Origin: an uncultured delta proteobacterium
GTDB lineage: Bacteria; Myxococcota_A; Polyangia; Fen-1088
Direction of reading: 5' to 3'
Length of the DNA: 64,000 bases
Assembly: GCA_963737265.1 (NCBI GenBank)
Contig: CAVTRY010000013.1
Span: forward strand, 160,001 to 224,000
The notes below the pieces were generated by a model. That model saw nothing but the letters and a program-made list of their open reading frames with translations. It did not search any database and had not been told where the DNA came from. Positions 7,062 to 55,893 of this stretch are shown in pieces. Positions within the stretch are counted from its first letter, which is position 1. Each line of letters starts with the position of its first letter. Position numbers and translations under genes: made by a program.

Positions 7062-7272
7062 TCAGCGGAGACCAAGCTGTGCGCGATTGCCGTTAGGCTC
7101 GCTCTCGGCAACCGGTGCTGTGCCGCGCTGGCGGCAGAAACATCGCACTTCCTCCTCGTCGAAACGCCACTCGTCACCCACCCGATGCGCCGGCAGCCCT
7201 CGCTTGAGCAGGCGGTAAACGTGCTTGGGATGAACCTTGTTCCAGCGGTGTTGCCACCCCCGAGCACGGCAT
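7062..7272 (-). pseudogene. Remnant of an excisionase-type (HTH_17) DNA-binding regulator
   Basis: 'KVHPKHVYRLLKRGLPAHRVGDEWRFDEEEV' is an HTH_17 signature. The first helix ('GVATPL') is in another frame and no C-terminal domain follows. Confidence 0.6.
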
Positions 7273-7375
7273 GGTTCCGTCACGAAGGACCGCGCATCTG
7301 TGGTAGGGGTGGGGTCGCCACGTCCATCCATACGCGCGGCGAGGTGGCTCGGTTTCGCTGCGATGAAAAAGGGGG

Positions 7376-8536
7376 CTAGCGCGCTCGCGGCAGGCCCGCC
7401 CTCTGCGCTTCGAGCAACCAGGTGGGCTTGGCGTAAACGTCGTCGAACATGCTCGACGTGGGCGGCGGGCCAGCGGCTTCCTCGCTGACGATGGCGGCGC
7501 GGATGTCGGCCGTGATGCGCTTGGCGAGCGCCGCCTGCGCGTCGGCGGAGAGAATCCCTTTCTCCGCGAGCCAGACGCCAAAGCGCAGCAGCGGATCTCT
7601 CTTGGACCAGGCCTTGTGCTCGGCTTCGTCCCGGTAGTGGGCGGGATCGTCGGCGCTGGAATGGGCACCCAGGCGATACGTCAGCGCCTCGATGAAAGTG
7701 GGGCCGCCACCGGCACGCGCTTTGTCCACGGCGGCCCGGATGGCCGAAAACATCGCCAAGACATCGTTGCCGTCGACGCGCAGTGAAGGTACGGCATAGG
7801 CAAGTCCCTTCACCGCCAAGGTTTCCGCCTGGGTCTGCACGGACACCGGCGTGGAAATCGCCCACTGATTGTTCTGGCACACGAACACCACTGGCGCTTG
7901 GTAGACGGCGGCGAAGTTCAAGCCGGCGTGGAAGTCATCCTCGCTGGTGGCGCCGTCGCCGAAGAAACACAGGGCGACAGTGCTTTCCTTGCGAATTTTG
8001 GCGGCCCAGGCGATTCCCACGGCGTGAGGGATCTGCGACGCTACACACGACGAGGTGCTCACATGCCTGATGCGGACGGTGCTTACATGACAAGGCATCT
8101 GTCGGCCTCGTCCCGAGTCGTGATCCGTGCCCAAAATCTGCGCGATGTACTTGGTCAGGGGCAAGCCGCGATAGATCGCCGCCGCGCCCTCGCGCAGGCC
8201 CTGCACGAAAAAGTCTGTCGCGGCGATGGCATGCGCACCGGCGATGGCGCCCGCCTCTTGCCCGCGCGCCTCGAAATAATGGCCGATGCGTCCCTGGCGT
8301 TGCAGCGGCAGCAACTGGTCATCGAGCAGGCGGCTGGTGAGCATCCCTTGGTACAGACGAAACAAAGCCTCGGCGGAAAGTTGGGGCTCGGACGCCGCAT
8401 CGGCGTGGCCATCCTCGTCGAGGATGCGGAAAACGCCCGTCGCGCGCGCGTAGTCTTCGTCCGACCAGACCTCTACGCAGGCCACGCTGTCGGCGGTGAG
8501 CTGGCCCGAACGACTCTTGCTGGTCGGCTGTGCCAT
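7376..8536 (-). CDS. 2-oxoacid (branched-chain/pyruvate) dehydrogenase E1 alpha subunit
   Basis: 'QRQGRIG', ThDP motif 'GDGATSE...NNQWAIS', 'TYRLGAHSSADDP'. Confidence 0.95.
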   Translation of the reverse strand: MAQPTSKSRSGQLTADSVACVEVWSDEDYARATGVFRILDEDGHADAASEPQLSAEALFRLYQGMLTSRLLDDQLLPLQRQGRIGHYFEARGQEAGAIAGAHAIAATDFFVQGLREGAAAIYRGLPLTKYIAQILGTDHDSGRGRQMPCHVSTVRIRHVSTSSCVASQIPHAVGIAWAAKIRKESTVALCFFGDGATSEDDFHAGLNFAAVYQAPVVFVCQNNQWAISTPVSVQTQAETLAVKGLAYAVPSLRVDGNDVLAMFSAIRAAVDKARAGGGPTFIEALTYRLGAHSSADDPAHYRDEAEHKAWSKRDPLLRFGVWLAEKGILSADAQAALAKRITADIRAAIVSEEAAGPPPTSSMFDDVYAKPTWLLEAQRAGLPRAR

Positions 8537-14715: not shown

Positions 14716-16144
14716 CATAGGCATTAACCCAAAAACTTGCGATTTCTCCAAGAACGCCCGCATATGCTCGGGATGGACAACATAGCGAAGGACAGCACCA
14801 CGGGCGACTGGCCAATGATTGCGGCGCAGCTTCCATCCGGATGGGAGGATCTGGCGGTCGAGATGGGCGTGGTCTACACGAAGTTTCCGGCGCACATGGG
14901 CACGAAGGTGACCGAGGCGGCACATTTGCTGCAGCCGATTCTGTACCAGGTGGCGACGAACTCGTCGCTGGCCGTGACGGTGGCGATGGCGGCGGCGGCC
15001 GGGGTGATCAAGATGTCGGCAGTCGGGCTGCACAAGCGAATGAGAACCATTGGTCCCTACCTGGCGCGACTGGTGACGCTGATGACGGATGCCGAGGCTT
15101 CGTTCGCAGCGGAGCGATGGGCGGGCTACGACGTGGTGATCGTGGACGGCTCTTCGGTGTCGCGGCCAGGAGCCGAGGGCACCACGGCTCGCGTTCACTA
15201 TGCGCTGCGCTTGAGCACGTTGCGGCCTGTGCAAATCGAGGTCACGGATGACAAGGGCGGCGAGACGTTCAGAAACTTCGATGCCGAGGCGGGACAACTG
15301 TGGATGGGCGACCGCGGCTACTCGAACCCGCCTGGCATAGCGGCGATCATGGCGGCGGATGCCGACGTACTGGTCCGATACAACCGTGGCTCGCTTCCTC
15401 TGTACGGCATGAACGGGCAGCTACTCGACGTTCAGCGAATGCTGGCTCGCCTCAAGCATCCGGGGGTTGCACGCGAATGGTACGCAGAGGTCCATCCGCA
15501 GGGTGGCAAGGCGATCGCTGGCCGGCTGTGCGCGTTGCTCTTGCCGCCCGACAAAGCAGAGGAGGCTCGGCAGCGCGCGCGACGGGAACAAGGTCCGTCT
15601 GTGACTGAGGAAACCCTTGCGGCCGCGCAGTACGTGGTGGTGTTCACGACCGTACCGAGGTCGCGGCTGACCGCCGCCCTGGTCATGGAACTATACGGCC
15701 TCCGCTGGCAAATCGAGCTTCACATCAAGCGGGACAAATCCATCGCAGGGCTCGAACCGACTGCCCAACTTTCGCAACGACACTGTCTATTCCTGGATTT
15801 GCGCCAAGATGCTGCTTACCCAGATCGCCCGCAAACTTGCTACACCCAACGTGGCTATTCCCCCCTGTGGAGAACTCGACTGGTTCGGCATCCGACGAGC
15901 CGCAGAAAGGCGTCAGGGCCGGACTCAGGCGATCAAAGCACCGGGTCGTAGCCGAGCCATGGCGTCTCATGACCGTCCTCTGGCAAACCGTATGCGCGGC
16001 GCTCACGCCGATCAGCGCCAGTCGGTTTCCCGATTTCTTGCAGGCATTCCTTGACCACCTTCAACTCCAAGTCCCGCGCAAGCGTCTACGCAGCGCCGTT
16101 AAGTTCCAGCAACATCTTGCGGAGGAATTGGGTTAATGCCTATG
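14716..16144 (+). mobile_element. IS4-family insertion sequence (IS231/IS186-like), 1429 bp
   Basis: Perfect 17-bp terminal inverted repeats CATAGGCATTAACCCAA (14716-14732) and TTGGGTTAATGCCTATG (16128-16144). 11-bp direct repeat GGCAGCGGCCC at 14705-14715 and 16145-16155. Confidence 0.95.
14764..16136 (+). pseudogene. IS4-family DDE transposase with a +1 frameshift at about 15756
   Basis: 'IVDGS', 'MGDRGY' and YREK-like 'YGLRWQIE..IK..KS'. Removing one A from CTCGAACCG restores 'GLDRLPNFRNDTVYSWICAKML'. The 'PWRLMTVLW' tail is in a further frame. Confidence 0.88.
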
Positions 16145-16300
16145 GGCAGCGGCCCTCCCTTCAAAAATCTTCAAGACGGGTCCATTTATGGACACGTCTT
16201 GAGCGCGGGTATTGTTGTGTGCCTCCGCCATTCCCGCTTTTCCGACCGGATTTTGGCAAACGAGCTAAACTTCTTGCGCGAAGAGACGATTTATTGCGGC

Positions 16301-18229
16301 ATGAGGCAACCACTGCCACCGGTGATCGCGGTCGACGAAGCAAAGTGTGTCAACTGCCATGCCTGCATCTCCGCGTGCCCGGTCAAGTACTGCAATGACG
16401 GCAGTGGCGACACCATCAAGCTCGATCACGACCTGTGCATCGGATGCGGCCAATGCCTCAAGGCATGCACCCACGGAGCTCGCCTGCCCATGGATGACAC
16501 CGCGGCTCTTCTCAAGGATGCTGAAAGGCACATCCCCATGGTTGCCATCGCGGCCCCCGCCGTGGCCTCTTCGTTTCCCAACCAATACCTGAACCTCAAC
16601 GGCTGGCTCGCATCGATCGGGGTCGAGGCCGTGTTCGACGTCAGCTTCGGGGCCGAGCTGACCATCCGCTCGTACCTCGAGCACCTCAAGGCCAACCAGC
16701 CGAAATTGATCATCGCCCAACCCTGCCCGGCGCTCGTCAGCTACATCGAGATCTATCGCCCCGACCTTCTGCCCTATCTCGCTCCAGCGGACAGTCCGAT
16801 GATGCACACCCTGAAGATGATCCGCGAATACTACCCGCAGTATCGCTCGCACAAGCTGGTCATCCTGTCGCCCTGTGTGGCCAAGAAGCGCGAATTCGTC
16901 AGTGTCGGCATCGGCGACTACAACGTGACCCTGCATGCCTTGAAGCAGCACTTGACAAAGCACCGTATATCTCTCCACGCATTCCCCAAAGTCGACTTCG
17001 CCAATCCGCCCGCCGAGCGGGCCGTTCTGTTTTCGACGCCGGGCGGACTGCAACGCACGGCCGAGCGCTGGAATCCGGCCCTGCGCAACATCACGCGCAA
17101 AATCGAAGGGCCGCATGTCGTCTATCACTATCTGGACCATTTGTCTGCCATGGTCGACAAGGGTAAGGCCCCGCTGCTGGTTGATTGCCTGAACTGCGAT
17201 TTGGGGTGCAACGGCGGAACTGGAACCGATATGGCCGACGCCTCGCCCGACGAGGTGGAGTTTTCCATCGAAGAGCGCAATCAGGAGATGCAAGGGAAGC
17301 ACAAGCGGGCCGGATTCTTCACCGCGGCCCGCACCCGCCGGGCACTCGAAAAGATGGTCGACCGCTATTGGAAGCCAGGACTTTACGGCCGTTCTTATGC
17401 CCGCAACTCGGACGTGCAGCATCTAAACAAGCCGTCGCCGGCGCAATTGGAAGCTATCTACGCAACGATGCATAAGCACAAGCCGGAAGACAGGCAGAAC
17501 TGTTCGTCGTGTGGTTACGGCTCGTGCGACAAGATGGCGACGGCGATCCACAACGGGCTCAACCGCCCCGAAAACTGCCATCACTTCCTGCGCACGACTT
17601 TGGACGAGGAAAAGGCGCACACCGAGCAGAAGGTGCGGGATCGCACGCGCGAGCTCAACGAAATCGGGCGAGCCCAGCGCGAATCCTCGCAGCGTCTGGG
17701 AAGTGAGCTCACGACCGTCAGTAGGGCGGCGGAGGAGATGGCCCAAACCATCACCGACATCTCGACCAGCGCCGACAAAGCGCGTGCCATAACCACCGAT
17801 GCGGTGGAGAAGGCCGAGAAGGTCGTGACGGTCATGGAGGGGCTCGGCAAAGCGGCTGCCGACATCAGTAAGGTGACCGACGCCATCAACTCGATCTCGG
17901 CCCAAACCAACCTTCTTGCCCTGAACGCAACCATCGAAGCGGCCCGCGCCGGCGCGCTGGGGAAGGGCTTTGCCGTGGTCGCCAACGAAGTCAAAGAGCT
18001 CGCTCGTCAAGCGGCCACGGCGACCGACGACATCCGGGTCAAGATCAGCAGTGTTCAGGCATCCACCTCGAACGCCGTGGAAGGCATTTCCGGCGTGGCA
18101 GGCGTCGTTCGCGATGTCAGTGCAATCGTCTCGACGATTGCGGCCGCTATCGAGAAGCAATCCAGAGTCACCGAAGAGATCGCGACCAATATCGCCCGCG
18201 CCTCCGCCGAAGCCGCCCAGAGGGTTTAG
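16301..18229 (+). CDS. Sensory [FeFe]-hydrogenase-like protein fused to a methyl-accepting chemotaxis signalling domain (group C2-like)
   Basis: Two ferredoxin motifs ([12 protein letters not shown]; [11 protein letters not shown]), H-domain motifs 'AQPCPA', 'SPCVAKKRE', '[11 protein letters not shown]', FeS motif 'NCSSCGY', MCP tip '[31 protein letters not shown]'. The ORF-track start at 16136 lies inside the IS end, so 16301 is preferred. Confidence 0.9.
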
Positions 18230-19132: not shown

Positions 19133-20188
19133 CTAGAAGCTCCCCGCGACCAACAACGACGCGCCCCCGGCCGTGGCGCTGATCGAGGGTCGAGCGGCGC
19201 GGCCCGGCGGAAACCAGTCCGGCCAGAATCGCCAAGCAATGTAGGTCGTCACGGCGGCGCTCGCGATTCCGACACTAAACGCCGCCGTGGAGATGCCAGC
19301 TGCTCGCTCCGCGCTTCGTCCCGCGTTCACTGCCGCGTCGCTGCACACGGTCTGTGCCTCGGGACAAAGCCGGGTGCGCTCGTCCCAATGCGATTTTGCT
19401 TGCAGTCCGTAGTAGGCCCCCACGGCGAGCGCCGTCACGGTCACGCTCGCTGCGGTCGAGCCCAAGGCAACCGAAGTCCAACCCCGGCGACGGGGCGGCT
19501 TGTCCTCGCTGGCGCTGGAGGAAGTCGCGGGCGCCGGCGTGACCGGAACCAGGGCCACAAGCGCCCGCAGCAATGGCACTTCAACGACCTTCGTGTCTCC
19601 TTCGTCGGCCAAGGTCACGTCGCTTTGCCAGTCCGCCCTTTCCGCGGCCGTGGCCCGCAGCGCGTGGCTTCCACCATCGACAGGATAGGGCGCGCCCCAG
19701 GCGGACTCCGGCAGGAGAACGCCGTCGAGCTCCAGCGAGAGCCCTGGCCTCCGGACGGTGGGCGACACGGATACGACGAGAGCCGATCGTCGTCCTCTCA
19801 ACTCGCCCATGCGTTGCTCCGCCAATTTCTCGCGCGCTGGCTTGTGTTCATTCTGGGCCAAGGACAGGACTGTCTTGTAGCTGGCCCAAGCGCTCGCCAG
19901 CTTGCCCTGACGTTCCTGGCAAAGGGCCAAATTGAGCGCGGTTCCGCTCGCTGGGTCCAGCCGCAGGCTCTCGGCGAAGAGCGGACAGGCCTTGTCGTAC
20001 TTCTGGGCAAGTAGGTGCGTGCGCCCTTCGGCGAACAGCGTTTCAGCCAGGGTTTCCCGTGCGTCGGTCGCGTCCGCCGCACGCGCCGGAAGGGCCACCC
20101 AAAAGCCGACTAAGACAGTCCATGTTCGGATTTGTCCTAGGCAGCGAAGAAGACGCCATCCCTCACTTGCGCTGCAGAAATTCTTCAT
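19133..20188 (-). CDS. TPR/PEGA-like membrane or secreted protein
   Basis: 'AETLFAEGR...ACPLFAESLRLDPASGTALNLALCQERQGKLASAW' TPR, then a beta-sandwich and hydrophobic C-terminal helices. Start uncertain. Confidence 0.8.
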   Translation of the reverse strand: MKNFCSASEGWRLLRCLGQIRTWTVLVGFWVALPARAADATDARETLAETLFAEGRTHLLAQKYDKACPLFAESLRLDPASGTALNLALCQERQGKLASAWASYKTVLSLAQNEHKPAREKLAEQRMGELRGRRSALVVSVSPTVRRPGLSLELDGVLLPESAWGAPYPVDGGSHALRATAAERADWQSDVTLADEGDTKVVEVPLLRALVALVPVTPAPATSSSASEDKPPRRRGWTSVALGSTAASVTVTALAVGAYYGLQAKSHWDERTRLCPEAQTVCSDAAVNAGRSAERAAGISTAAFSVGIASAAVTTYIAWRFWPDWFPPGRAARPSISATAGGASLLVAGSF

Positions 20189-21605
20189 GCGTCGATAGAT
20201 CCGTGGAGGTCGCCGTCGACACGTTATCGGAGGTTCGAGTTGGGGGATTTTCCGATGCGGGACGAGCCGAGGGTTGGCGGGGACGTCTCGGACGAGAAGC
20301 CGGCAGGGCCCCATCGGTGACGAAAGATCGGACTTGCGCAGCCGCCGCCGTCGCTGAACCCGCGTCCCCGCGTGGCGGTACGCCACCAGCGTCAAGGCCG
20401 GCTGGCAGGGCCACCTCGGCGCGGTCCGGGGCGTATTCCCCTCGGACGAAGAGTGCGACGGCCGCCGCGATGCTGGCGGACGCGATCAGGCCACCGGCTA
20501 CCCAACCGGAGCGAAGCCTGCCACGTCGCGACTGAGGCGCGGGGATACTTGTCATGCTTAGTGGCCCACCCGTCTCGGTCGGTGGCCCCTGTCGTTCCCT
20601 GTCCGGCGCCTGAGCGGTGGACAAAGGCTCGGATTCAGTGCCGACGACGGGCTGCCAACCACTCGCGCGGCAAAGCTCCGACCAAAACTCACGCAGATTC
20701 GGATGCCGATCACGGGGACTCAAGGCGAGAGCTCGCGCGAACGCTTCCTCGACGAGGTCCGAGACTTGGCACCCGAGCGTGCGCGGCGTCGGGCGCACGG
20801 CGGCGTCCAGACACGCCGCCATCAATTGCGGTCCATCGGTTCCGTCGAGCGCGCGTCGACCCGCCATCATCTCGACCAGCACCAGTGCAAAAGCGTACAC
20901 GTCGGTCCAAGGCCCCGTGGCACCCAACCGCCGCAGCCATTGCTCGGGTGCGCTGTACGCGGGCGTGAAAGCCGTGGCGTCGCCCGTCGTGTCGGCCATC
21001 TGTCCCGTCAAGGTCGGCCATTGTCCCAAGACCTTGGCGACGCCAAAGTCGAGGATCTTCGCGGTCGTGGCGCCTTGCCGCCTGAGCAAGAAGATGTTGC
21101 CGGGTTTCACATCCCGATGAGCAATGCCTTCCACGTGCGCGACGGCCAGGCCGAGGGCGGCTTCGCGCAGGCATTGCAGTGCTTCGTCCAAGGCAAAGGT
21201 CGGCCGGGAACCCGCGCGTCGCGCGTGCAGCTCGGCTTCCAACGAAACCCCATCCAGCCACTCCATCGCGATGAATGGCAACACCGATCCATCGGCGACG
21301 GCCAAGGTTCCGGCATCGAATGAGCGCGCGATCGCGGGATGGACCGAGCCTAGCTTGAAGAGGAGCTTGCCTTCCGCCAGGAAGTGTTGAATGAACGCCG
21401 TTCTGTGCTCGTCATCGAGCCGGGCCGGCATTTTGAGCACCTTGATCGCGACGGGAACGTCCAAGGCCAGATGAATCGCCTTGTAGGTTACGCTAAAGCC
21501 GCCCTCGCCAATCCGTCGTTCGATGTGGTAGCGCCCGTCGATCACGCGGCCAGCGAGATCCATTCCACCACCGCCCGCGTGGTTCTTGTGTGGGGAGTCG
21601 GCCAC
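20163..21605 (-). CDS. Hanks-type Ser/Thr protein kinase with a TM helix
   Basis: 'IGEGGFS', 'VAIKVL', 'HRDVKPGN', 'DFG', 'YSAPEQ', 'DVYA'. Confidence 0.95.
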   Translation of the reverse strand: MADSPHKNHAGGGGMDLAGRVIDGRYHIERRIGEGGFSVTYKAIHLALDVPVAIKVLKMPARLDDEHRTAFIQHFLAEGKLLFKLGSVHPAIARSFDAGTLAVADGSVLPFIAMEWLDGVSLEAELHARRAGSRPTFALDEALQCLREAALGLAVAHVEGIAHRDVKPGNIFLLRRQGATTAKILDFGVAKVLGQWPTLTGQMADTTGDATAFTPAYSAPEQWLRRLGATGPWTDVYAFALVLVEMMAGRRALDGTDGPQLMAACLDAAVRPTPRTLGCQVSDLVEEAFARALALSPRDRHPNLREFWSELCRASGWQPVVGTESEPLSTAQAPDRERQGPPTETGGPLSMTSIPAPQSRRGRLRSGWVAGGLIASASIAAAVALFVRGEYAPDRAEVALPAGLDAGGVPPRGDAGSATAAAAQVRSFVTDGALPASRPRRPRQPSARPASENPPTRTSDNVSTATSTDLSTHEEFLQRK

Positions 21606-21619
21606 GATCGTCGAGGTTC

Positions 21620-22951
21620 CTAATCCTGGCGCAGGGAGTCGGTCTCAATTCCAAGGCGTTCGCAGACCCGGTAAAAGGTCGCGCGGGATATCCCGAGGGC
21701 CGCCGCCGCGCGCGTCGCCACGCCCTTGGCGCCGACCATGGCGGCCCGCACCTGTTCCTTGGTCAAGGGCCCGTCGGACGAAAGCACGGGCCGGACATCC
21801 GGAAGATGCCGAACACTGATTTTCCTACTGTTACTCGCCATGGCTTGGCCAATGGCGTGCGAGACAGCGTACCTGAGATTGCGTACGTTTCCCTCCCAAT
21901 GGCCTAGGGCCAGCGCCTCCGCGGCGGTGGCGTCGAAAACCAGATCGGGTGCCTCCTCTGCAAGTATCGACTGCGCCAGGACCAACACCTCATCCCTGCG
22001 CTCGCGCAGCGGCGGAACCGAAATGATGAGGCCAGCCAGACGATAATAGAGATCCTTGCGAAAGGAGCCCGACGCTGAACAGGCCTTCAAATCCCGACTG
22101 GTCGCGCTGACCAAGCGAACATCCACGTCGACATCGCTGCGCGCGCCGACTGGACGAATCTGTTTGAGGTCGATGGCGCGCAAGAGCTTGGCTTGCAGAT
22201 CAAGGCCGAGGTCGGCGACCTCATCCAGGAACAAGACGCCACCGGAGGCCTCCCGAAAGGCTCCCGGATGGGCCGTGGCCGCCCCGGTGAAGGCGCCTCT
22301 TTCGTGCCCGAACAGCACCGATTCGAACAGAGGTGGAGGAATGGCGGCGACGTTCAGCCCGACGAACGGCCCCTTGTCTTTCCGGGTCGCATGCAGCAGC
22401 CGAGCGACGGCTTCCTTGCCGGTCCCGCTTTCGCCAAGCACCAGGACCGGCGCAGCTAGGTTGGCCACGCGGATGGCCTGTTCCCAAACGCGTCCCAAGG
22501 TTGGGCCGGCGATGACGTCCCGGGGTAGTCCGAGGAAACTGGCCGCGAGTCTCCTCGGCGCGACCTTGAATGCGTCGCCATCCCTCACCGCGAGCCAGAT
22601 GGTTGCGCCAAATCGCAGGATCGCGCCGAAGTCGGCGCAGACGCCGGCGGACTGGTCCACCCGTCGACCGTCGACAAAAGTCCCTCGCGTGGAACCCAAA
22701 TCCAGCACCTGCAAGCCCTTTGCCGAGGCATCAAGAACAGCGTGTCGCCGAGAGACCGTGCTGTCCTCGACCACGATACTCGAAGCCGGGTCGCGGCCGA
22801 GCTGACACTTGGTACGCACGGAGAAGATCGCCGGGGCCTGGTCTGCGACGGAGGGAAAGATCCGAACCAGTGCGGGTCGAAAAGGTGTTCGCCCTTCGTG
22901 GGGTGAGCCCTCGGTCGGGTCGATGGGCGCTGTTGTTGCTATGTCGGGCAT
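21620..22951 (-). CDS. FHA-domain sigma-54-dependent transcriptional activator
   Basis: FHA 'GRD...VSRRHA...DLGSTRGT', AAA+ 'GESGTGKE', 'GAFTGA', 'LFLDEV', Fis HTH '[10 protein letters not shown]'. Confidence 0.95.
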
Positions 22952-23207
22952 GAAACTGCTGGTCGCGAAGCCTACGAGTCCGGAGCCGGCCGACCTATAG
23001 CACACCTAAGCGATGTGGGCGGCGACAGCTGAGTCAAACCCAGGCTGCCTACCGCCTGCCAAAGCCTTCGTCTTCCCTGCGGCATGCGTCACGCGATCGT
23101 CTCAGCGAGATGGTCCCGTGTCTCACAAAGACAGTGCCGATTCCGCGATGGCCGAAAGAACCGCGCCGTCCCGATCGATTTTGCGGGGCCGCAACCAGAA
23201 ATTTCGG

Positions 23208-23223
23208 TGGCCTTCACCTTGCA
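23208..23223 (+). promoter_or_regulatory. Putative sigma-54 (-24/-12) promoter
   Basis: TGGC-cttcacc-TTGCA with exact GG-N10-GC spacing, about 70 bp upstream of the 23295 start and divergent from a sigma54 activator. Confidence 0.7.
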
Positions 23224-23294
23224 TTACGCGCCGCTGTCCCGGATCGATTCCAGGTCCGGGTCGACGATCTACGGAAGAAAGAAAGGTATTTCAC

Positions 23295-26084
23295 ATGAAA
23301 GAGACGAGTAAAGACCGGTCTGTCGCCTGGAAGGCGGAGGCCGCGGTTCCGCCAGGTTTCGCGCGCCAATTAAAGTATTATAGGTCGCAAATATGTGAGT
23401 CCCGCGAGCGCCTAGGCGCCACTGGCATCGCCAGCTTGGCCGCCCTCGGAATGTTGTCGGCCTGCTCCGGGACGGCAACGTCGCAAGGAAATTCGATTCA
23501 GGCCCACCAAGCCGCCTTGACCACGGACTCGGGCCCGAGCCCGATGGGCTTCGAGTCGCCTTCCTATTGGCAGGTGACCCAGGGGAGCGTCCGCGCGCTG
23601 CAAAGCAGTGCGCAACGGACCAGTGGAGCCGCGGCCCTCGCTGTGGTCGGGCCATCGGGTTACGCGCGGATCGATAGCACTGCGTTATCGTCGACCAGTC
23701 CGGCGTTGGCGGGCTTGGCGACGGGAGCGAAGGCCGCAATTGACATCAACATCCCCGCGCAGCAAGCAAACCCGTACTGGTTTGGCGCGGTCCAGATGTA
23801 CGTGAATAGTCCGTCGCGTAACATCTATAATGGCTACCTCGGACAGGTCGAGCTCACGGGGATGCGCACAGGCAGCTATCAGACCATCCGCTTCGCGTTT
23901 CCCGACTACGTGGTTTCGGCGCTGACTGGAGCGAGTTTCGCGGACCTGACCTTCGGCATAGTTATCAATGTGCCGCAGAACAGCCCGGGCACCTATCTGC
24001 TCGACAATCTTCGTCTCAAGAGCAGCGTTTTGCCGCCGGCGCCGACCCAGCCTTCAACGGGAGAGTGGCAGGTTCCGGAAGGCCAGTCCACCACGCTCGT
24101 TGCTTGGAAGAGCATGACCGCTGGTGTGGCCGACCAGGTCGCGCAAGCCACGTTCACCCAGTCCTTGGCTCAGGTTCCACAGAGTCTGCACGTGGTCAAG
24201 GGCGCGGCGGGCGGTGGCACGGCGACCTTGGTGCTTGGTCTGACCGGCAGCACGGCCACGACCTGCACCTTTCAAGGTGACAGCGCCGGCGCGAACTATG
24301 TGCTTGTCTCTTGCACAGGTGGCGCGAAAGCAGGCGATCTGCTTCCCGCCGACAGCGTCACCCTGACGGTGAACACGGCCGACGCCAATTCACCCAAGAC
24401 CAAGATTCAGGCCCAGATCGCCCTGAATCCTGCGGGCGACGACATCGTCCAGGGGCTGCCGCCCATCCCGACCTATCTGGGATCTTCGGCGGCGGAAATG
24501 GCCGCCGCGCTCGACTCGTTCGCGCTGGCGCAGAAGAGCTGGCAGCTCGGCGACAACGTGGCGGTGCACCTGCCGACGCCGGAGCTCAACCTGCACGACA
24601 GCGAAACGACCAATGACGACATTCCGGCGCCGCAGCCGGGAGATACCGATCCGCCTTTCAAGAAGACTGTCAACCTGACCAACAGTGACATGGCGGACGC
24701 GCGCTGGCACCTCAACGGATCCATTGACGCGAATACAGACAGCGCCGGCACCCGCCACACGCATTTCGACAACACGGTGGGGACGGACATCTACATTCTT
24801 GGTGCGAAGATCAATTTGATGTCGATCAGCGCGACAGTCGATGCCAGCTCACCGGCCCCTAGCCTTGGCGGCGGCACCGGAACGTCGACGGCCAAGTACT
24901 GCTACTCGTATATCCTCCAGACCGAGCAGTGCAAGAACGCCAGCGGCAACATCGCCGCCCCCATCGATTTGTTCCGGGACAGCCCCAGCATCACCTTCAT
25001 CGACTTCACCTGGTGGATCTTCCACGTGGGTGCGAGTGGCGGTCTCGATATCTACGCCACGGTTCAAGGCGACGTCACGCCCAACGGCCTGGCGATCACC
25101 TTGACGCCGGGCGCGGCTTTGTGGTTCAAAGTGGAGGCCGGTGTCGCGGTCGGCTTTGCGGGCGGAGGTTTGTGGGGTCAGATCGACCTATTCAGAGTCC
25201 AGATTCCAATCACGGTTGGCGCTTCCATTGTCACCAACGTGGATCCGCGCGTGTGCACGCAAACTGTCAGCGAATCCCTCAGCGCACAATTGCAGTTCTC
25301 GGCTCTTGGAGGCAAGTTGGGCTACTACCTCGAAGGTGGTCTAACCTGCGGTTGGTGGGGTGGCCTGTGCTGGCGCGATGACGAAACGATCTTCCCCTGG
25401 GATGGACTAAAGGCGAATTACAACATCATTCCAGCGACCCCTCTCGTGAACCAGACTACCCCGCTGCCTCATGCGACTTGCGCTGTGCCCGGCGACGCCC
25501 CAGGCAAGGTGGACTATCCGGTGGATAGTGAATTATTTCCGCAAGGCACGACATCGTTCCTGACGGGAGAGTTCTCGCGACGTATTCCCCAGGATCCGCC
25601 GTCGGTTCCCCCGGTCGTCATGGACACGCCATTCGACTGCAAGACTTTCACGTGGTTCTCCAGTGATCCGTCTGACGTGATCACGGCGGTCCCGGGCCAG
25701 GCCATCGGCTGCACGCCCCAGATCGTCTACGGCAATCCCGGGACGCGCACCATCACCGTCGTGGCGAGCGATCCCGCGCTCGGCAACGGCAGCGCCAGCG
25801 TGCAGGTCACGGTTTCGCCCGCTCTGCCCAATCCGCCCATCCCAACCATCACCAGCATTGGCGGTTGCAATGGTCAGGCACAAGGAACGGCGACGGATCC
25901 GCTGGCCCAAGACCTGACGCTAAGCTGGTACGAGGAGCCTGGCGACCACGCGGTCGGTACGGGCACCACCTCGGGCAATCTGGGAGGTGGTTTCTCGGGC
26001 GCCCTTCGTCTGGCGGCCTCCGCACCGGACGGACGCGTGGGCGTCGTCGAGAGCCCTCTCCTGGTCTTCTGCGAGCCGAAGTAA
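23295..26084 (+). CDS. Large secreted/lipoprotein (about 930 aa): CBM-like N-terminal jelly-roll, long amphipathic beta-sheet region, Ig/PKD-like C-terminus
   Basis: RBS-like GAAAGG before ATG 23295, lipobox-like 'LSAC', 'YLLDNLRL' CBM-like end, alternating beta-strand pattern at about 24650-25400. Confidence 0.7.
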   Translation: MKETSKDRSVAWKAEAAVPPGFARQLKYYRSQICESRERLGATGIASLAALGMLSACSGTATSQGNSIQAHQAALTTDSGPSPMGFESPSYWQVTQGSVRALQSSAQRTSGAAALAVVGPSGYARIDSTALSSTSPALAGLATGAKAAIDINIPAQQANPYWFGAVQMYVNSPSRNIYNGYLGQVELTGMRTGSYQTIRFAFPDYVVSALTGASFADLTFGIVINVPQNSPGTYLLDNLRLKSSVLPPAPTQPSTGEWQVPEGQSTTLVAWKSMTAGVADQVAQATFTQSLAQVPQSLHVVKGAAGGGTATLVLGLTGSTATTCTFQGDSAGANYVLVSCTGGAKAGDLLPADSVTLTVNTADANSPKTKIQAQIALNPAGDDIVQGLPPIPTYLGSSAAEMAAALDSFALAQKSWQLGDNVAVHLPTPELNLHDSETTNDDIPAPQPGDTDPPFKKTVNLTNSDMADARWHLNGSIDANTDSAGTRHTHFDNTVGTDIYILGAKINLMSISATVDASSPAPSLGGGTGTSTAKYCYSYILQTEQCKNASGNIAAPIDLFRDSPSITFIDFTWWIFHVGASGGLDIYATVQGDVTPNGLAITLTPGAALWFKVEAGVAVGFAGGGLWGQIDLFRVQIPITVGASIVTNVDPRVCTQTVSESLSAQLQFSALGGKLGYYLEGGLTCGWWGGLCWRDDETIFPWDGLKANYNIIPATPLVNQTTPLPHATCAVPGDAPGKVDYPVDSELFPQGTTSFLTGEFSRRIPQDPPSVPPVVMDTPFDCKTFTWFSSDPSDVITAVPGQAIGCTPQIVYGNPGTRTITVVASDPALGNGSASVQVTVSPALPNPPIPTITSIGGCNGQAQGTATDPLAQDLTLSWYEEPGDHAVGTGTTSGNLGGGFSGALRLAASAPDGRVGVVESPLLVFCEPK

Positions 26085-26149
26085 ACACGAACTGCTAACC
26101 TGGGGGCCGCTTGGCGAATCGCCAGGCGGCCCCACCTTTCGCGAGAACC

Positions 26150-28003
26150 ATGATGTCACACAAACGCCTCTTTCTTGTCGCTGGTCTGGTCCTGGTGGGT
26201 TCGGCTTCGGCCATCGCCTGGTCCCGGCTGCATTCGGCCGCGCCACCAACAGTGGGTTGTTTCCGATTGGGCGAGCAGATTCGCAGCAAAATGGATCTCA
26301 AGCTGTCCGTGAGCATGGGCCGGTCCAAACCACAGCACATGACACTGACCGGCGAGCTCGCGGCCACACCCGTGGATCGTCACGATGGCGTTGTGGAAGT
26401 TGCCTATGAGCTTACTCAGGCACAGGCCAACCTGGCGGCCAACGACGGCCTGCCTACCCCGGAACTCCATCAGGCCGAGTTGGAACTCGCCAGTGGGCTC
26501 GGGCAACGTTTCTATGTGCGCTACCGTCCCGACGGAGCGGCGGTGGCCATCAGTTTCGATCGTGGTTACGAGGTCGGCTTTGCCAATGTGTTGCGCACGA
26601 TTGTTGGCATGGCGCAAATTGTTCAAGGAACGCAAACCGCGCCGACATGGACCGTGCTGGAGGAGGACGCCAACGGCCAGTACCTCGCGTCCTATGCTCG
26701 CACGGATGGACCACGGCTGACCAAGCGAAAGCTCCGCTACATTGTGGAGAGCGACGCCGCCCACACGAACAAACAGCAAACCGCTGTCGTTCCGATCCCT
26801 CAGCTCGACGAAGCAAGCTTCGAGCTAACGCCGGACGCACGCGGACGAATTCGGGAAATGCAGGGGCGCGAAAAGGTCAACCTGTCGCTTCCCGCGGCCC
26901 ATTTGAGCGTGGAGACCGACGCTGAATTACGCCTTTCCCAGTCAACCGTCGTCATGGTGACCGCGTTGGTCGGCGACTACCAACGGCGCAAGAACGAGGT
27001 TCTGACCCAGCCCATGCAAGGCACTTCAGGGGATCCCAAGGTGCAGCGTGGTTTCAATGATCGGAAGGTCCTCGGCCGAGCGACCCTCGACCAACTGTGG
27101 GGCGAGCTCTTGGCGTCTCCGGATCCGAGCAATTCGGCCAAGAACGCGGACACCGTTCGGCGCTTCGAGGCGCTGTTTCGCCTACAAGAGTCCACCATCG
27201 CGGAAATCCTGAAGCGTCTTGCCGGCACGTCCCCGCAACTCGCGAAGATCGTGGTGGACGCACTCTCGCTCGCCGGGACAGAGGCCACGCAGGATGCCTT
27301 GGCCGCCATCGCCGTCGATGAACACTTTTCCGATCTTCCCCGTTCCTATGCTCTCCGTTACCTTGCCCACCAGGATACCCCAACCGCCGCGGCGCTGGCC
27401 GCGGCAGAGCGACTTATCGACGATGGCAATGAAGACCGCCGTCAGATGGCGCGTTTCGCCTATGGAACGCTCGCTTCCAAGCTCGCGGGCGAGCATCCAA
27501 GCCAAGCCGATTCCATGGTGCGTACGCTGCTGCAAAGACTTGAACGGTCCGCCAACGATGAAGAGCGGAGCGATCTCTATCTGGCCTTGGGCAATACCGC
27601 CAATATGGCCGCCTTCGAGGCACTTCAGCAAGCGACCACGAAGGGCTCACTTCTGCTGCGAGCAACGGCTCTTCAAGCCATCGGCCGCATCAACGATCCA
27701 CGCGTGATTCCACTGCTGGAGGCCGCGCTTGTTTCCAGGGAGCAATCGATCCGCATGGCCACCATGGACGGCATCGGTCGCCGCGAGATAGGCCCCTTCC
27801 TGCCTGCTCTGGTGAAGACAGCGCAAACCGACGAGAGTCCCTATGTGCGAAGCGCGGCTGTCGATCACCTTGGGTCGGCGCTCGACGCGGCTCCGCAACT
27901 GCGTGCGGTGCTGTCCGAGCGAGCCAGCAAGGACAGCGATGCCAAAGTTCGAGCCGCCGCCGTTCGAGCCCTCGAACCGAGATCGGCCACGCGGCAATAC
28001 TAG
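26150..28003 (+). CDS. Secreted protein with an N-terminal beta-rich domain and C-terminal HEAT repeats (vitellogenin/MTP N-terminal-like)
   Basis: Signal peptide, beta-rich region 'WTVLEEDANGQYLASY...KRKLRY', helical 'LSLAGTEATQDAL', 'LALGN' and HEAT repeats 'VRAAAVRAL'. Confidence 0.75.
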   Translation: MMSHKRLFLVAGLVLVGSASAIAWSRLHSAAPPTVGCFRLGEQIRSKMDLKLSVSMGRSKPQHMTLTGELAATPVDRHDGVVEVAYELTQAQANLAANDGLPTPELHQAELELASGLGQRFYVRYRPDGAAVAISFDRGYEVGFANVLRTIVGMAQIVQGTQTAPTWTVLEEDANGQYLASYARTDGPRLTKRKLRYIVESDAAHTNKQQTAVVPIPQLDEASFELTPDARGRIREMQGREKVNLSLPAAHLSVETDAELRLSQSTVVMVTALVGDYQRRKNEVLTQPMQGTSGDPKVQRGFNDRKVLGRATLDQLWGELLASPDPSNSAKNADTVRRFEALFRLQESTIAEILKRLAGTSPQLAKIVVDALSLAGTEATQDALAAIAVDEHFSDLPRSYALRYLAHQDTPTAAALAAAERLIDDGNEDRRQMARFAYGTLASKLAGEHPSQADSMVRTLLQRLERSANDEERSDLYLALGNTANMAAFEALQQATTKGSLLLRATALQAIGRINDPRVIPLLEAALVSREQSIRMATMDGIGRREIGPFLPALVKTAQTDESPYVRSAAVDHLGSALDAAPQLRAVLSERASKDSDAKVRAAAVRALEPRSATRQY

Positions 28004-28240: not shown

Positions 28241-29659
28241 TTATCCCCGCGCCGGCGTTGCGTTTGCGTGGCTGGAGCGCGGGGGCGGAGCCTTTTTGCT
28301 GCCACTCTTGTCGCCGTTATCGAGGATGAAGTAGTTCACGCCCGGAGTCCCGCAGGCGTCGCCGTTGCGGTGGAATTTCCAGTGGAGGTAGACCTTGCCG
28401 TTCCCTGACAGGATGGCGGTTGGCGGCGTGGGAAAGGGCGCGGCAGCGTACACGGCGCTGATGGCGGCGCCATCGAAGCCCGTGATTCCCGACGTGCGCA
28501 CCATGGCGATTTTGTCCACGTTGCCTTCTCCATCCAAGACGATTTCCAATTTCGCGACCAGTTTCAGGTCGTTCATGGGGCTATCCCGGAACGACGTGTC
28601 CATTTGGGTCAGAAAACCAAACGCCCACTTTTCGTGGATTTGACGGTGCATGCGCGTGATGAATTGCGCGAACGGGGCGGCTCGGGTATTCAGCTCGGTT
28701 TGGTTGTCCGGCGTGACTTCATCGATGAAATTCTCCAGAGCAGAAAACACGCGCTCATTCCGCTCGGTGAATTTCCCTTTGTGTTTGGATCTTTCCTGCT
28801 TGGCCACCGCCGCCGCCGTTTCGGCGTCGTCGCCAAACGTCGAGGCGTAGCCTTGCTTGGTTAAATGGGGTGGATCGGCCATGGTGGAAGCACGACGCGG
28901 CCCTTCTGCCTCGCGCCGACCATCTTCCGCCTTGGAGAGCATTCCGTCGGGATCTTCCGGGAGCAGATCACCCCGCGCGCCGGCCTTTTCCAGGCCAGGC
29001 ACACGCATGGACAAGGTGGGGCGGGGCTCGATCATGGGATTTGACTCCTCGGCCAGGGCTTTGCGCCCGCGCTGGCCGGGCTTTGCCTCCCTGTCTTCCA
29101 GTTGCGCGATTTTGTCCTTGTCGTCGGATGGCTCAGATGGTTTTCCTTGTCGATTCTTTTCCAGGTTGGTTTGCCGGGCGCGGGTCTCATGTTCGGCGCG
29201 ATTGTTTCGCTGGGCCAGGTACTTGGCGTCCTTGGCTGCGTCCTCCTCTTTGCCCATGTCCAGGTCGACCATCTTTTGCCCAGGCAACTCCTCCGGTTGC
29301 GCCACAGTTTTCTCTTCGGGCTTGGGCGCCACCGGCTCGGGTTGCGGCGGTTTGGGCTCACGCGCGCGCTCGGCACTAGCTTGTGGTCTGGGCGGCTTGG
29401 CAGTGGGCGACTTTTCGGTCCTTTCGGGCAGTTTCGTTGCCTTGCTCGGCTCCATCGGTTCTTCAACGGCGGGCAGGTTGGGCGGTAGCTCCTCGTCCTT
29501 GACGGACTCGAAGCTTAGTCCCACTTCGTTGTTCGCGGGCTTGTCCCACCAAAACACCCATGCCATGAGCGGCACCAGCACTTGCGCATGCAGGAGAATG
29601 GACAGCAGCAGTCCACGGCCAATCCGGCCGCGATCTCGCCGCGTTTTCTGCCATGCCAT
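28241..29659 (-). CDS. TonB-family protein (N-terminal TM, Pro/Lys-rich linker, TonB C-terminal domain)
   Basis: 'SILLH' TM motif, Pro-rich linker, 'TSGITGFDGAAISAVYAAAPFPTPP'. Confidence 0.85.
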   Translation of the reverse strand: MAWQKTRRDRGRIGRGLLLSILLHAQVLVPLMAWVFWWDKPANNEVGLSFESVKDEELPPNLPAVEEPMEPSKATKLPERTEKSPTAKPPRPQASAERAREPKPPQPEPVAPKPEEKTVAQPEELPGQKMVDLDMGKEEDAAKDAKYLAQRNNRAEHETRARQTNLEKNRQGKPSEPSDDKDKIAQLEDREAKPGQRGRKALAEESNPMIEPRPTLSMRVPGLEKAGARGDLLPEDPDGMLSKAEDGRREAEGPRRASTMADPPHLTKQGYASTFGDDAETAAAVAKQERSKHKGKFTERNERVFSALENFIDEVTPDNQTELNTRAAPFAQFITRMHRQIHEKWAFGFLTQMDTSFRDSPMNDLKLVAKLEIVLDGEGNVDKIAMVRTSGITGFDGAAISAVYAAAPFPTPPTAILSGNGKVYLHWKFHRNGDACGTPGVNYFILDNGDKSGSKKAPPPRSSHANATPARG

Positions 29660-29748: not shown

Positions 29749-30762
29749 ATGGACATCGTACTTGGCGTTCTCCTCGGATCGATTCTGTGGTTTTTTGCCC
29801 GCTACGGCCTGGGCGGCTTCTACACTATCGGGCCCAACGAGCGGGCTGTCCTCTGCACCTTCGGGCGCGCGCAACGACTGGGGGAGGAAACGACGCTGAG
29901 CGATCCTGTCGCCGAGAAGCTGAATGACGATGAGAAGCAGCGCTACGATTACCCGCAGGTGCGGGTCATCGGGCCAGGCTTCCATTGGAAGCTGCCGTGG
30001 CAAACCTTGCACCGCACCTCCATCGCTACCTCGACGGTTTCCATCGCCTTCGATCCCGAGGATCCTTCAGCCAACTCGAGCGGGCAGGTTTTGGAGGCGG
30101 TCACCAAGGATCAGTTGAACACCGGCTTGGTCGGCCAGATCCGCTTCACCGTGTCCGAGCGCAATCTGTACGCCTACTTCTTTGGCGTCAAGCGCCCGGT
30201 CGCGCATGTACTTGGCTACTTCGTTTCGGTCTTGCGCGACCGCATCGCCAACTTCGAGGCCCCCGACAAGGCGCGCGCCACCGGCGCCGAACCCGCCGAC
30301 GCGACCGACATCAGCGGCGTGCAAGGGATCTCCATCAATGACCTGCGCAAGAACCTGCGCGACCTCAACGAGCGCATGGATGCCGAGTGCGAAACCGCAG
30401 CCGCGCGCTACGGCATCCACCTCGATGCCGCCCTCATCACCGGCATCGATCCGCCGGCCGAGGTGGATTCGGCGCTTGCCGCCATCAACACCGCGCACAA
30501 CCTCGTGTCGAGCGAAATCAGCCTGGCGCAAGCCGCGGCCGACCAGCGCATCGTCCAGTCCAAACGCGCGGTGGAGATCGAAACTCTGAACGCACAGGCA
30601 GAAGTCGAGCCCTTGCTTGCCCTCGCCGATCAGCTACGTGACCTCGCGGGCAACGGCGGTCCACAGGCCCTCGAGGCCTACGTGCGCAATGCCAAGATCG
30701 CGCTGCAACGCCGGGCGCGCACCCTGGTCTTGCAAAACGCCACCCTGGGAGGGACCAAGTGA
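29749..30762 (+). CDS. SPFH/band-7 domain protein
   Basis: N-terminal TM, 'NERAVLCTFG', 'GPGFHWKLPW', 'IDPPAEV..AL'. Confidence 0.85.
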   Translation: MDIVLGVLLGSILWFFARYGLGGFYTIGPNERAVLCTFGRAQRLGEETTLSDPVAEKLNDDEKQRYDYPQVRVIGPGFHWKLPWQTLHRTSIATSTVSIAFDPEDPSANSSGQVLEAVTKDQLNTGLVGQIRFTVSERNLYAYFFGVKRPVAHVLGYFVSVLRDRIANFEAPDKARATGAEPADATDISGVQGISINDLRKNLRDLNERMDAECETAAARYGIHLDAALITGIDPPAEVDSALAAINTAHNLVSSEISLAQAAADQRIVQSKRAVEIETLNAQAEVEPLLALADQLRDLAGNGGPQALEAYVRNAKIALQRRARTLVLQNATLGGTK

Positions 30763-31676
30763 TGGACTCGTCGGTGATGGAGTTCTTCACGGCGCTGCTC
30801 TACACCTTCGGCGGGTGTTTCATCCTCATTCCGGTCGCGCTGGCCTGCGCGCGCATGTTCGCCATGTACGTGGTGGTTAGCGAACGGCAGTGCGTGGTCT
30901 TCGAGCTATTCGGCAAGGTGCGCTTGGTGCAGAGCGAGCCCGGCCTTCACTGCCCGTGGCTCAAGTTAGGTCCTTTCGCGATCTTGCTGCCGCTGTTTGG
31001 CAAGAAATTCACGGTGGACATGCGCATCGACCAGACCTACTTGCGCAGCCAGCCCGTGAATTCCGAGGAAGGCGCGCCCATGGGCATCGGCGTGTGGTGC
31101 GAAATGGTGGTCAGCGATCCCGTCGATTACCTCTATAAGAATACCGATCCGCTCGGCTCGTTGCGCGCCAACGTCTCGAACGCCACGGTCCGCTGCCTGT
31201 CCAACATGAAGCTGTCCGACATGCTGGAAAATCGCCACGGCATGAGCCGACTGGTTCGCCAGGAAGTCACCTCCAAGTCGCAGGAATGGGGCTACCAGGT
31301 CGGCAGCATCTACATCCGCAAGGTGCATTTCCGCGACCGTGGCATGATTTCGCAAATCGAGCAGAAAGTGGTGAACCGCCTACGCCAGGTGACGGCCGCC
31401 ATTCAGCAAGACGGCGCCAACCGCGTGAACGTCATCCACTCGACCGCCGAGCGCCAGGCCGCCGTCGAATTCGCCAAAGCCGCAGCCACGCGACCGCGAA
31501 TCGTCGGCAAGGCACTGGGACAAATCGCCGAGAATCCGCTCATCGCCAAGGCCTTGTTCGAAGTCCTGGAAACCCAGGCGCTGCTCGCCAGCAACAGCCT
31601 GGAAGTGAATGTCATGGCACCCGGGATTTCGATCCTCTACAGCATGGGCGGCCCCGCCGCGGCTCCGCGCACCTAG
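30759..31676 (+). CDS. SPFH/band-7 domain protein
   Basis: Overlaps the previous gene by 4 nt. TM, 'VFELFGK...EPGLH', 'WGYQVGSIYIRKV'. Confidence 0.85.
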   Translation: MMDSSVMEFFTALLYTFGGCFILIPVALACARMFAMYVVVSERQCVVFELFGKVRLVQSEPGLHCPWLKLGPFAILLPLFGKKFTVDMRIDQTYLRSQPVNSEEGAPMGIGVWCEMVVSDPVDYLYKNTDPLGSLRANVSNATVRCLSNMKLSDMLENRHGMSRLVRQEVTSKSQEWGYQVGSIYIRKVHFRDRGMISQIEQKVVNRLRQVTAAIQQDGANRVNVIHSTAERQAAVEFAKAAATRPRIVGKALGQIAENPLIAKALFEVLETQALLASNSLEVNVMAPGISILYSMGGPAAAPRT

Positions 31677-41865: not shown

Positions 41866-41938
41866 GCTGACAGCAGGATATCAGGTGGCGGCGCTCGCCA
41901 GAGGACAGATCCCGACGCAGCGCCCGGACGAAACGGAC

Positions 41939-42109
41939 TAACCACAGAGGCACGGAGAGCACGGAGACGGACGAGAGGGATCGGGTTCCGGATCTCAAGA
42001 GGTGTGTATCAATCGCGGACGGAGCCCTGACGGGACGATGGATGGACACGTCTTCAGCCCCCAAATCCTTTCTTAGCGGGCTCTGTGTGCTCCGTGCTCT
42101 CTGTGGTTA
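41939..42109. repeat. Inverted pair of ACCACAGAG..CACGGAG intergenic repeats (REP/MITE-like)
   Basis: TAACCACAGAGGCACGGAGAGCACGGAG (41939-41966) and, inverted, TAACCACAGAGAGCACGGAGCACACAGAG (42109-42081). Confidence 0.65.
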
Positions 42110-55820: not shown

Positions 55821-55893
55821 GCCTGGAGGCCTAATCAGGCAGTGGACGAAATGCAATCACACAGCCGGATCGCGAGAGCGGCGATTCCATCCC

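Follow-up and report, generated by a model that had tools for sequence, protein, structure and literature searches.

What might two adjacent, co-oriented genes for exported proteins be doing in a soil myxobacterium-like genome of 6.55 Mb, if one of the products resembles half of a vitellogenin? The question is raised by genes A and B, which lie side by side in a 64-kb stretch of contig CAVTRY010000013.1 from an uncultured delta proteobacterium, hereafter the window. Vitellogenin, MTP and apoB, the large lipid transfer proteins (LLTPs), are taken to have arisen in eukaryotes, for the most part in animals, and an earlier note on this DNA had proposed that A and B encode the two halves of a bacterial version, expressed under the control of a kinase, an FHA-domain activator and sigma-54. 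Our results show that B is a structural relative of the front half of an LLTP and that genes like it are almost always found next to genes for a separate beta-strand domain such as the one found in A. The best hypothesis, to which we assign a probability of about 0.45, is that A and B constitute one operon for an exported two-protein module, a split lipid carrier.

The argument starts from protein B. Its AlphaFold (AF2) model (predicted local distance difference test score, pLDDT, 84.9, from a 10-sequence alignment) consists of strands within residues 42-288, arranged around helices at 103-117 and 142-154, and of 19 helices that follow at 296-608. When the model was compared with the Protein Data Bank (PDB) by Foldseek, ranks 1-11 were all occupied by LLTPs, namely MTP (6i7s, 8eoj), lipovitellin (1lsh), bee vitellogenin (9ens, 9enr) and apoB100, with E values from 1.5e-17 to 3e-8, and designed HEAT proteins came next at about 1e-6. 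VIA-align, which was run on the candidate list from Foldseek, aligned 238 residues of B (model 33-292) to the apoB100 barrel 9bd8_A with Z 18.7 and a root-mean-square deviation (rmsd) of 6.1, 521 residues (model 36-617) to residues 26-625 of the MTP chain 6i7s_G with Z 17.6 and rmsd 10.0, and 539 residues (model 37-614) to residues 17-633 of the lipovitellin chain 1lsh_A with Z 16.8. On the helical half of B alone, HEAT designs equal the LLTPs in VIA score (alphaRep, Z about 20). At the level of sequence families, residues 339-517 match Pfam Vitellogenin_N (PF01347) with 46.3 bits, the cut-off being 24, and B is the sole match to this family in the genome; none of 14 control genomes contains one. 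Residues from about 455 to 610 match HEAT_2 with 74 bits, which overlaps the Vitellogenin_N region.

In the published account of MTP (PMC6717300), the barrel spans residues 21-297, the helical domain 298-603 and the lipid-binding A and C sheets 604-884; the helical domain clamps these sheets, and the pit of the barrel receives strands of the A-sheet. Because B aligns to MTP 26-625, it ends, by the boundaries given there, where the sheet domain of MTP begins: its last residue, 617, is aligned to MTP residue 625, and the mature protein of 585 residues is without LLTP sheets in the same chain. As modelled, B is homologous in structure to the barrel and helical clamp at the N-terminus of LLTPs and lacks the lipid-binding sheet domain.

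Protein A has a different composition. It carries the lipobox LSAC (...ALGMLSAC at residues 50-57, read by eye), the cysteine of which, Cys57, is invariant in 17 aligned sequences (alignment A2, consensus LAAC), and on the evidence of this motif it is predicted to be a lipid-anchored lipoprotein. The AF2 model of A has a pLDDT of 71.8. When the model was compared by VIA with 48,161 chains, the leading matches, on residues 82-245, were carbohydrate-binding modules (CBMs) at Z 12.7-11, among them 2c4x_A (Z 12.7, rmsd 3.1, 142 aligned); the fold matches CBM27/28/15/29 at Z 12.4-12.7 and none of the Pfam CBM families matched, and the region is a predicted CBM-like domain. An immunoglobulin-like (Ig-like) sandwich and a helix at 399-415 precede the central beta domain, in which 15 strands of 6-28 residues are found at 454-711. 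Seven of these strands are 15-28 residues long, the domain contains 11% Gly, and the cysteines C536, C546, C654, C685 and C692 are conserved in the close family of A. For the C-terminal part (733-927) VIA gave 8gyr_A (Z 9.3, 89 aligned, rmsd 2.8) as well as 9kvu_A and 4l9d_A (Z 9.2 and 9.0).

The earlier note had described, from the letters alone, a co-oriented secreted pair, a long beta-strand region with CBM-like and Ig-like domains in A, and a beta-rich N-terminal domain followed by an alpha-superhelix in B that might resemble lipovitellin and MTP. All of this is borne out: the pair by its open reading frames (ORFs), spacer and N-terminal export signals, the composition of A by the AF2 model and VIA, that of B by its model, and the resemblance by the eleven LLTPs that head the Foldseek result and by the Vitellogenin_N score over the cut-off. 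The strings 'LSLAGTEATQDAL' and 'LALGN', which it had quoted, are found in B.

The two genes are arranged as an operon would be. Export signals can be read from both translations, and A and B are regarded as real genes because relatives exist for both (19 of A and 9 of B, at 24-73% identity, in a search of a 5.8-billion-protein collection). The ATG of gene A at 23295 is preceded by GAAAGAAAGG. The spacer between A and B is 65 nt long, and a terminator scan found no terminator-like site there; it holds a hairpin with a predicted RNA fold of -34.1 kcal/mol (z -6.0), which none of 200 shuffles equalled in stability. Considering the short spacer, a hairpin without a T run and the negative terminator scan, a single A-B transcript is likely, in which the hairpin may govern the ratio of A to B or make the upstream transcript more stable. 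The sequencing runs listed as containing this DNA are DNA runs from soil metagenomes of a single study, with no RNA run among them. The G+C content is 60-68% across the whole window, and the locus shows no compositional break.

Is this adjacency kept elsewhere? The relatives of the pair point to Myxococcota, five pairs of an A relative and a B relative appear to lie on the same contigs, and A-like and B-like genes are adjacent at three loci (L001, L002 and L003). Archangium gephyra (L004) is a carrier that can be cultured. When the other 400 phylum genomes were searched with a profile of the whole of A, single domains matched but no relative extended over the full length, and therefore the analysis was carried out at the level of domains. 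The B profile has matches in 51 of 401 phylum genomes at E<=1e-10, many of which span the HEAT part only. Since two weak matches to the central part of A sat right beside B-like genes, 20 B-like loci were taken and their ORFs were searched with hidden Markov models (HMMs) of the separate domains of A. Only the central domain (434-714), referred to below as the partner domain, recurs at B-like loci, and after four rounds of HMM iteration a gene next to the B-like one proved to carry it at 20 of 24 loci. The iterated HMM has not drifted, because at E<=10 it matches A and nothing else when run over the 33,149 frames of this genome. Its alignment contains the motifs GPVPV, TPYA, AGV-G-L-L, L-GS and W-G.

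A 21-sequence profile of the partner domain (A3) located 111 places in 65 of the 401 phylum genomes. At 44 of them a listed B place is no more than 5 kb away, and in 41 of these cases the partner precedes B on the same strand. The list of B places had been made by scoring three candidates per genome, and for this reason 20 of the remaining 67 partner places were sampled as well, three with too little downstream DNA being replaced by the next three. A B-like gene lies directly downstream at 16 of these, the contig ends at two and no B-like gene is present at two; eight of the 16 genes are recognised by the barrel HMM as well as the helix HMM, the other eight by the helix HMM only. Among 40 B-like neighbours, 18 score at or above the Vitellogenin_N cut-off of 24 bits, and another 3 appear in the list with lower scores. 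The pairing is kept across sequences that are only 15-25% identical. There are two exceptions to the order: at L019 the partner gene (7150-8301, minus strand), whose product includes a C-type lectin domain, and the B-like gene converge, and at L023 the partner gene (3294-4340, plus strand) is downstream of it. Up to five partner places per genome occur in G061 and G071, and the pair seems to duplicate as a unit, because each of the copies examined (L024, L055, L042, L046 and L054) has its own B-like gene.

The partner proteins range from minimal forms of 330-430 residues, such as the 381-residue product of L018 (3564-4709, minus strand), to giants of more than 1600, and those beside B-like genes carry Lectin_C, CBM96, Laminin_G_3 or bulb-lectin-like parts (16 neighbours scanned). 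Against 1.84 billion cluster representatives, the partner domain has 3425 matches at E<=1e-3, 2051 at 1e-10 and 98 at 1e-30, and in these proteins it is mostly C-terminal. A Pfam scan of 55 representatives, chosen by length, assigned lectin-type families to 16 and no family to 35. A feature search of the ESM Atlas with A and with the minimal partner P0182 returned unnamed clusters only (0.88-0.91), and one family member is annotated 'hypothetical protein' in the public record. Judged by these searches, the partner domain defines a large unnamed family, for which Pfam has no entry.

What, then, could the two proteins do together? The solved relatives of B hold lipid-binding sheets, B is without them, and it pairs with an all-beta domain of 281 residues, which is the size of the sheet domain of MTP (604-884 in the account cited above). 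The most economical reading of these three facts is that the beta domain of A would dock into the barrel and helical clamp of B, as the A- and C-sheets do in MTP, and that between them the two would enclose a cavity in which lipid or some other hydrophobic ligand is held, within the envelope or on the surface of the cell. The lipid anchor of A would fix the complex to a membrane, and the CBM-like and Ig-like domains would bind it to a glycan, such as one on prey or on the matrix. Transcription would begin at a sigma-54-type site, once the divergent activator had been switched on via its FHA domain by the adjacent Ser/Thr kinase. A wider claim, that bacteria carry a widespread two-chain counterpart of the LLTPs in which the B clamp and a separate A sheet domain make a lipid-holding particle while interchangeable lectin domains aim it at prey or matrix glycans, is put forward tentatively, as a possibility with the odds somewhat against it.

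The earlier proposal of two LLTP halves in two genes is thereby kept in part. On the one hand, B is the front half and the gene neighbourhood, the conservation of which the note had named as a check, holds at 20 of 24 loci, in order at 41 of 44 places and at 16 of 18 testable sampled places. On the other hand, a simple gene split is unlikely, because the gene order, partner and then B, is the reverse of the domain order of LLTPs in animals; the reversed order and the lack of fusions found also argue against the recent split of a single-chain protein.

Several observations weigh against a split lipid carrier, of which the reversed order is one. On the side of A, no Pfam family matched at E<=0.01 and NCBIfam also gave none. 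MTP_lip_bd and Vit_open_b-sht (PF19444, PF09172), searched over the genome at E<=10, miss A, one weak PF09172 match (E 0.1) lying elsewhere; the A3 profile has no match among PDB sequences at E<=10, and the full sequence of A has one PDB match, at E 0.066, and no LLTP. Foldseek and VIA with the whole A model list rows of CBM and Ig type only and are uninformative on the beta domain. On the side of B, the Vitellogenin_N match spans the helical part only (profile positions 326-528 of 590). The B sequence finds only designed HEAT/ARM proteins in the PDB (phmmer, E 1e-14) and no LLTP, and the A4 profile, built from 21 sequences over the first 430 positions of B, finds designed repeat proteins only. 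B has a single Cys (residue 37), and hence the barrel disulfide that is conserved in MTP, lipovitellin and apoB (Cys174-Cys194 in MTP, PMC6717300) is absent from it. As regards the pairing, four of the 24 B-like loci (L021, L027, L028 and L031) are without a partner domain alongside, and two of the 18 testable sampled partner places are without a B-like gene. At L021 (genome G114) the genes on either side of the B-like gene (1-1650 and 3841-5298, both on the minus strand) encode a very Cys-rich repeat protein and a protein built of repeated Ig-like units, neither of which is a partner; the partner-domain gene of G114 is found at the start of a different contig (L040). Searched with the B HMMs, none of 149 listed representatives fuses the partner domain to a B-like part, none of the 55 scanned representatives carries Vitellogenin_N or HEAT, and a search for fused forms above 1156 residues returned 3 generic HEAT proteins only.

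The main rival to the split carrier is a module that inserts into membranes under lectin guidance and is held by B: the partner domain, by means of its long, amphipathic, Gly-rich hairpins, would enter a target membrane like the stem of a beta-pore-forming toxin, the lectin or CBM would pick the target, and B would keep the hydrophobic sheets soluble or deliver them. Many Myxococcota are predators, several pore formers of the lectin type are built from a lectin and a beta-rich domain at the C-terminus, and the relatives of the pair are Myxococcota. Glycan-binding domains are frequent in the partners, from the CBM-like domain of A to the Lectin_C, CBM96 and Laminin_G_3 of the neighbours and the lectin-type families in 16 of the 55 long representatives, and the strand lengths of up to 28 residues and the 11% Gly in A would suit such hairpins. 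However, neither A nor any of the 16 neighbours or 55 representatives matches a Pfam pore-former family, and the partner-domain profile matches no PDB sequence. In A, the domain lies mid-chain between folded domains of a lipid-anchored protein, and any disulfides between the cysteines conserved in its close family would be expected to hinder unfolding into a pore. Moreover, membrane attack leaves unexplained why the partner should be the front half of an LLTP that ends at the sheet boundary, and we consider it unlikely.

A surface complex for glycan binding or adhesion, without a lipid role, is more doubtful still. B would here be a barrel and HEAT scaffold for the beta domain of A, serving attachment or the organisation of a matrix; the CBM-, Ig-, Big- and PKD-like domains and the lipid anchor of A are typical of surface adhesins, the C-terminal half of B matches HEAT_2 (74 bits), a general protein-binding scaffold, and the lipid role of the pair is itself deduced from models. 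Two points are against it. First, the minimal partners of 280-430 residues keep the pairing without any adhesin domain; second, to go by the MTP account, the module of barrel and helices holds lipid-binding sheets in every solved relative of B. Finally, that A and B are unrelated neighbours and the LLTP likeness of B a HEAT-repeat artefact might be argued from its HEAT-only sequence matches in the PDB and the overlap of Vitellogenin_N with HEAT_2, but chance adjacency with a pure HEAT artefact is rejected as highly improbable, given the Z of 18.7 for the barrel alone against that of apoB, alignments of 521-539 residues to MTP and lipovitellin, a PF01347 profile that ignores every other HEAT protein of the genome and all 14 control genomes, the order in 41 of 44 places, B downstream at 16 of 18 testable ones, and adjacency retained at 15-25% identity.

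How the split carrier would be switched on can be considered from the DNA upstream of gene A, where the genes for the activator, the kinase and a TPR protein are found on the minus strand. The activator gene is divergent from gene A, its translation contains GESGTGKE (Walker A) and an intact GAFTGA, and the kinase gene follows 14 nt downstream on the same strand. In the 290-nt gap beside the divergent activator, 72 nt ahead of the start codon of gene A, lies TGGCCTTCACCTTGCA, in which the -24 GG and the -12 GC are ten bases apart, as is canonical; the sigma-54 site that the earlier note had called perfectly spaced is indeed so. The count of the motif speaks against giving the site much weight by itself, as TGGC-N7-TTGCW has 2 matches in the window where 1.35 are expected and at least 2 in 41 of 100 shuffles, and its support is therefore positional. 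Two direct repeats (GTCTCA...CCG) lie 70-110 nt upstream of it and are candidate binding sites of the activator, judging by their position; activator sites usually lie at about that distance upstream of sigma-54 promoters. The genome has rpoN (Sigma54_DBD 217 bits, C12).

Among related loci the picture is mixed. At L001, where the A-like protein is 43% identical, TGGCAC-N5-TTGTT occurs 70 nt before the A-like ATG, and the sigma-54 pattern was not found upstream of the A-like gene in L002. L025, which has a distant minimal partner/B-like pair, has an FHA-sigma54-helix-turn-helix activator (E 2e-65 to that of the window) and a kinase directly alongside; in the gap between activator and pair there are two TGGCACGTGCC elements 120 nt apart (3610-3620 and 3730-3740), the first of which extends to the full palindrome TGGCACGTGCCA (3610-3621), and a TGGC-N7-TTGG site (3795-3809) 53 nt before the ATG. 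L052, L048 and L003 have at most an activator-like or kinase neighbour, and most related loci have no FHA-activator or kinase neighbour within the DNA examined at each. Control of the A-B operon by kinase, FHA activator and sigma-54, as the earlier note had it, is plausible for this locus, where GAFTGA is intact and rpoN present, and is echoed by the same trio in L025, but it is not general among related loci. The features discussed so far are collected in the table.

Table. Features of the A-B locus and its upstream genes (coordinates in the window, 5' to 3')
Feature	Position	Strand	Basis or remarks
Ser/Thr protein kinase	20163-21605	-	Pfam Pkinase 102.8 bits; NCBIfam kinase families below cut-offs
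FHA + sigma-54 AAA+ + HTH_8 enhancer-binding protein	21620-23005	-	Pfam FHA 48.8, Sigma54_activat 189.7 bits, HTH_8
Two 20-nt direct repeats, 21 nt apart	23099-23139	+	Repeat family D1, 70% identity between copies
Sigma-54-type promoter-like site	23208-23223	+	Exact TGGC-N7-TTGCW match
Gene A, 929-residue predicted lipoprotein	23295-26084	+	ORF and translation; no Pfam/NCBIfam family; 19 relatives
A residues 82-245, CBM-like beta-sandwich (predicted)	23538-24029	+	VIA-align
A residues 264-379, second beta-sandwich, Ig-like	24084-24431	+	DSSP of model; not assigned to a specific match
A residues 434-714, long-strand beta (partner) domain, 281 residues	24594-25436	+	DSSP; HMM matches in genes adjoining B-like genes
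A residues 733-927, two Ig-like domains (Big/LigA-like, PKD-like)	25491-26075	+	VIA
Hairpin, perfect 14-bp, G+C-rich, without T run	26103-26133	+	A-B spacer
Gene B, 617-residue exported protein	26150-28003	+	LLTP-type N-terminal module (modelled); Pfam Vitellogenin_N and HEAT_2
B residues 33-292, beta-barrel with enclosed helix	26246-27025	+	VIA against apoB100 barrel 9bd8_A
B residues 296-611, two-layer helical superhelix, HEAT-like at end	27035-27982	+	DSSP of model; VIA against MTP and lipovitellin

Other parts of the window deserve mention in their own right. Downstream of the pair are a gene for a TonB/TolA-like protein (28241-29659, minus strand) and two tandem SPFH/Band 7 genes (29749-31676, plus strand), for which no tie to the pair was seen in related loci. 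In a protein of 697 residues (16136-18229, plus strand), a methyl-accepting chemotaxis signalling domain (97.2 bits) is joined to 4Fe-4S ferredoxin motifs and to the C-terminal domain of an iron-hydrogenase large subunit (Fe_hyd_lg_C, 96.8 bits); from this domain content it may be a redox- or H2-sensing soluble chemoreceptor. The AT skew is unusually high at 40001-42000 and 54001-56000 (0.31 and 0.21) relative to the remaining window.

If the split carrier is real, its consequences reach beyond this locus. Should the wider claim of a widespread bacterial counterpart hold as well, the LLTP family would go back much further and extend much more widely than a literature centred on eukaryotes supposes, and at this locus signalling by the Ser/Thr kinase via sigma-54 would turn it on. 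MTP has been described as possibly the oldest member of the family (PMC6717300); a front-half homologue with a sheet-rich partner would give a handle on the origin of the LLTP lipid cavity. The pair would also establish a protein domain that is absent from the catalogues although its family is large (3425 cluster representatives, no Pfam family), and it would point to unexplored lipid handling or membrane attack by soil Myxococcota. The system is small enough for expression, pull-down and lipidomics. The earlier note had called it undescribed, and in keeping with this the literature searched, at abstract level, yielded no description of LLTP-like proteins from bacteria or of the present pair.

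Among known systems, the closest comparison is with the alpha subunit of MTP (6I7S, 8EOJ), the smallest LLTP. B aligns to its barrel and helical domain (MTP 26-625), and the 585 residues of mature B and the 281 of the beta domain of A are the sizes of the two parts of MTP. The differences are that the bacterial module consists of two chains and MTP of one, that the gene order is reversed, that no PDI-type subunit is evident for the bacterial pair, that B is without the barrel disulfide and that the beta domain of A has no sequence match to MTP_lip_bd; the bacterial proteins are, in addition, predicted to be exported or lipid-anchored, with lectin-like and Ig-like additions. With vitellogenin/lipovitellin and apoB100 (1LSH, 9ENR/9ENS, 9EA7, 9BD8) B shares, as modelled, the module of barrel and superhelix, whereas the large open sheets, the vWD domain and the amphipathic belts are missing, and its length of about 600 residues stands against 1,300-4,500. 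HEAT and alphaRep proteins resemble B at residues from about 455 to 610, which match HEAT_2 and designed alphaRep, but they are without the N-terminal beta-barrel, and the other HEAT proteins of this genome miss Vitellogenin_N. As to regulation, FHA-domain sigma-54 enhancer-binding proteins paired with Ser/Thr kinases occur in Myxococcus, and the arrangement described here is of the same kind, with an activator of FHA, AAA+ (GAFTGA) and helix-turn-helix parts beside a kinase and a -24/-12-type site; what differs is the target, since the operon under this predicted control encodes an LLTP-like pair.

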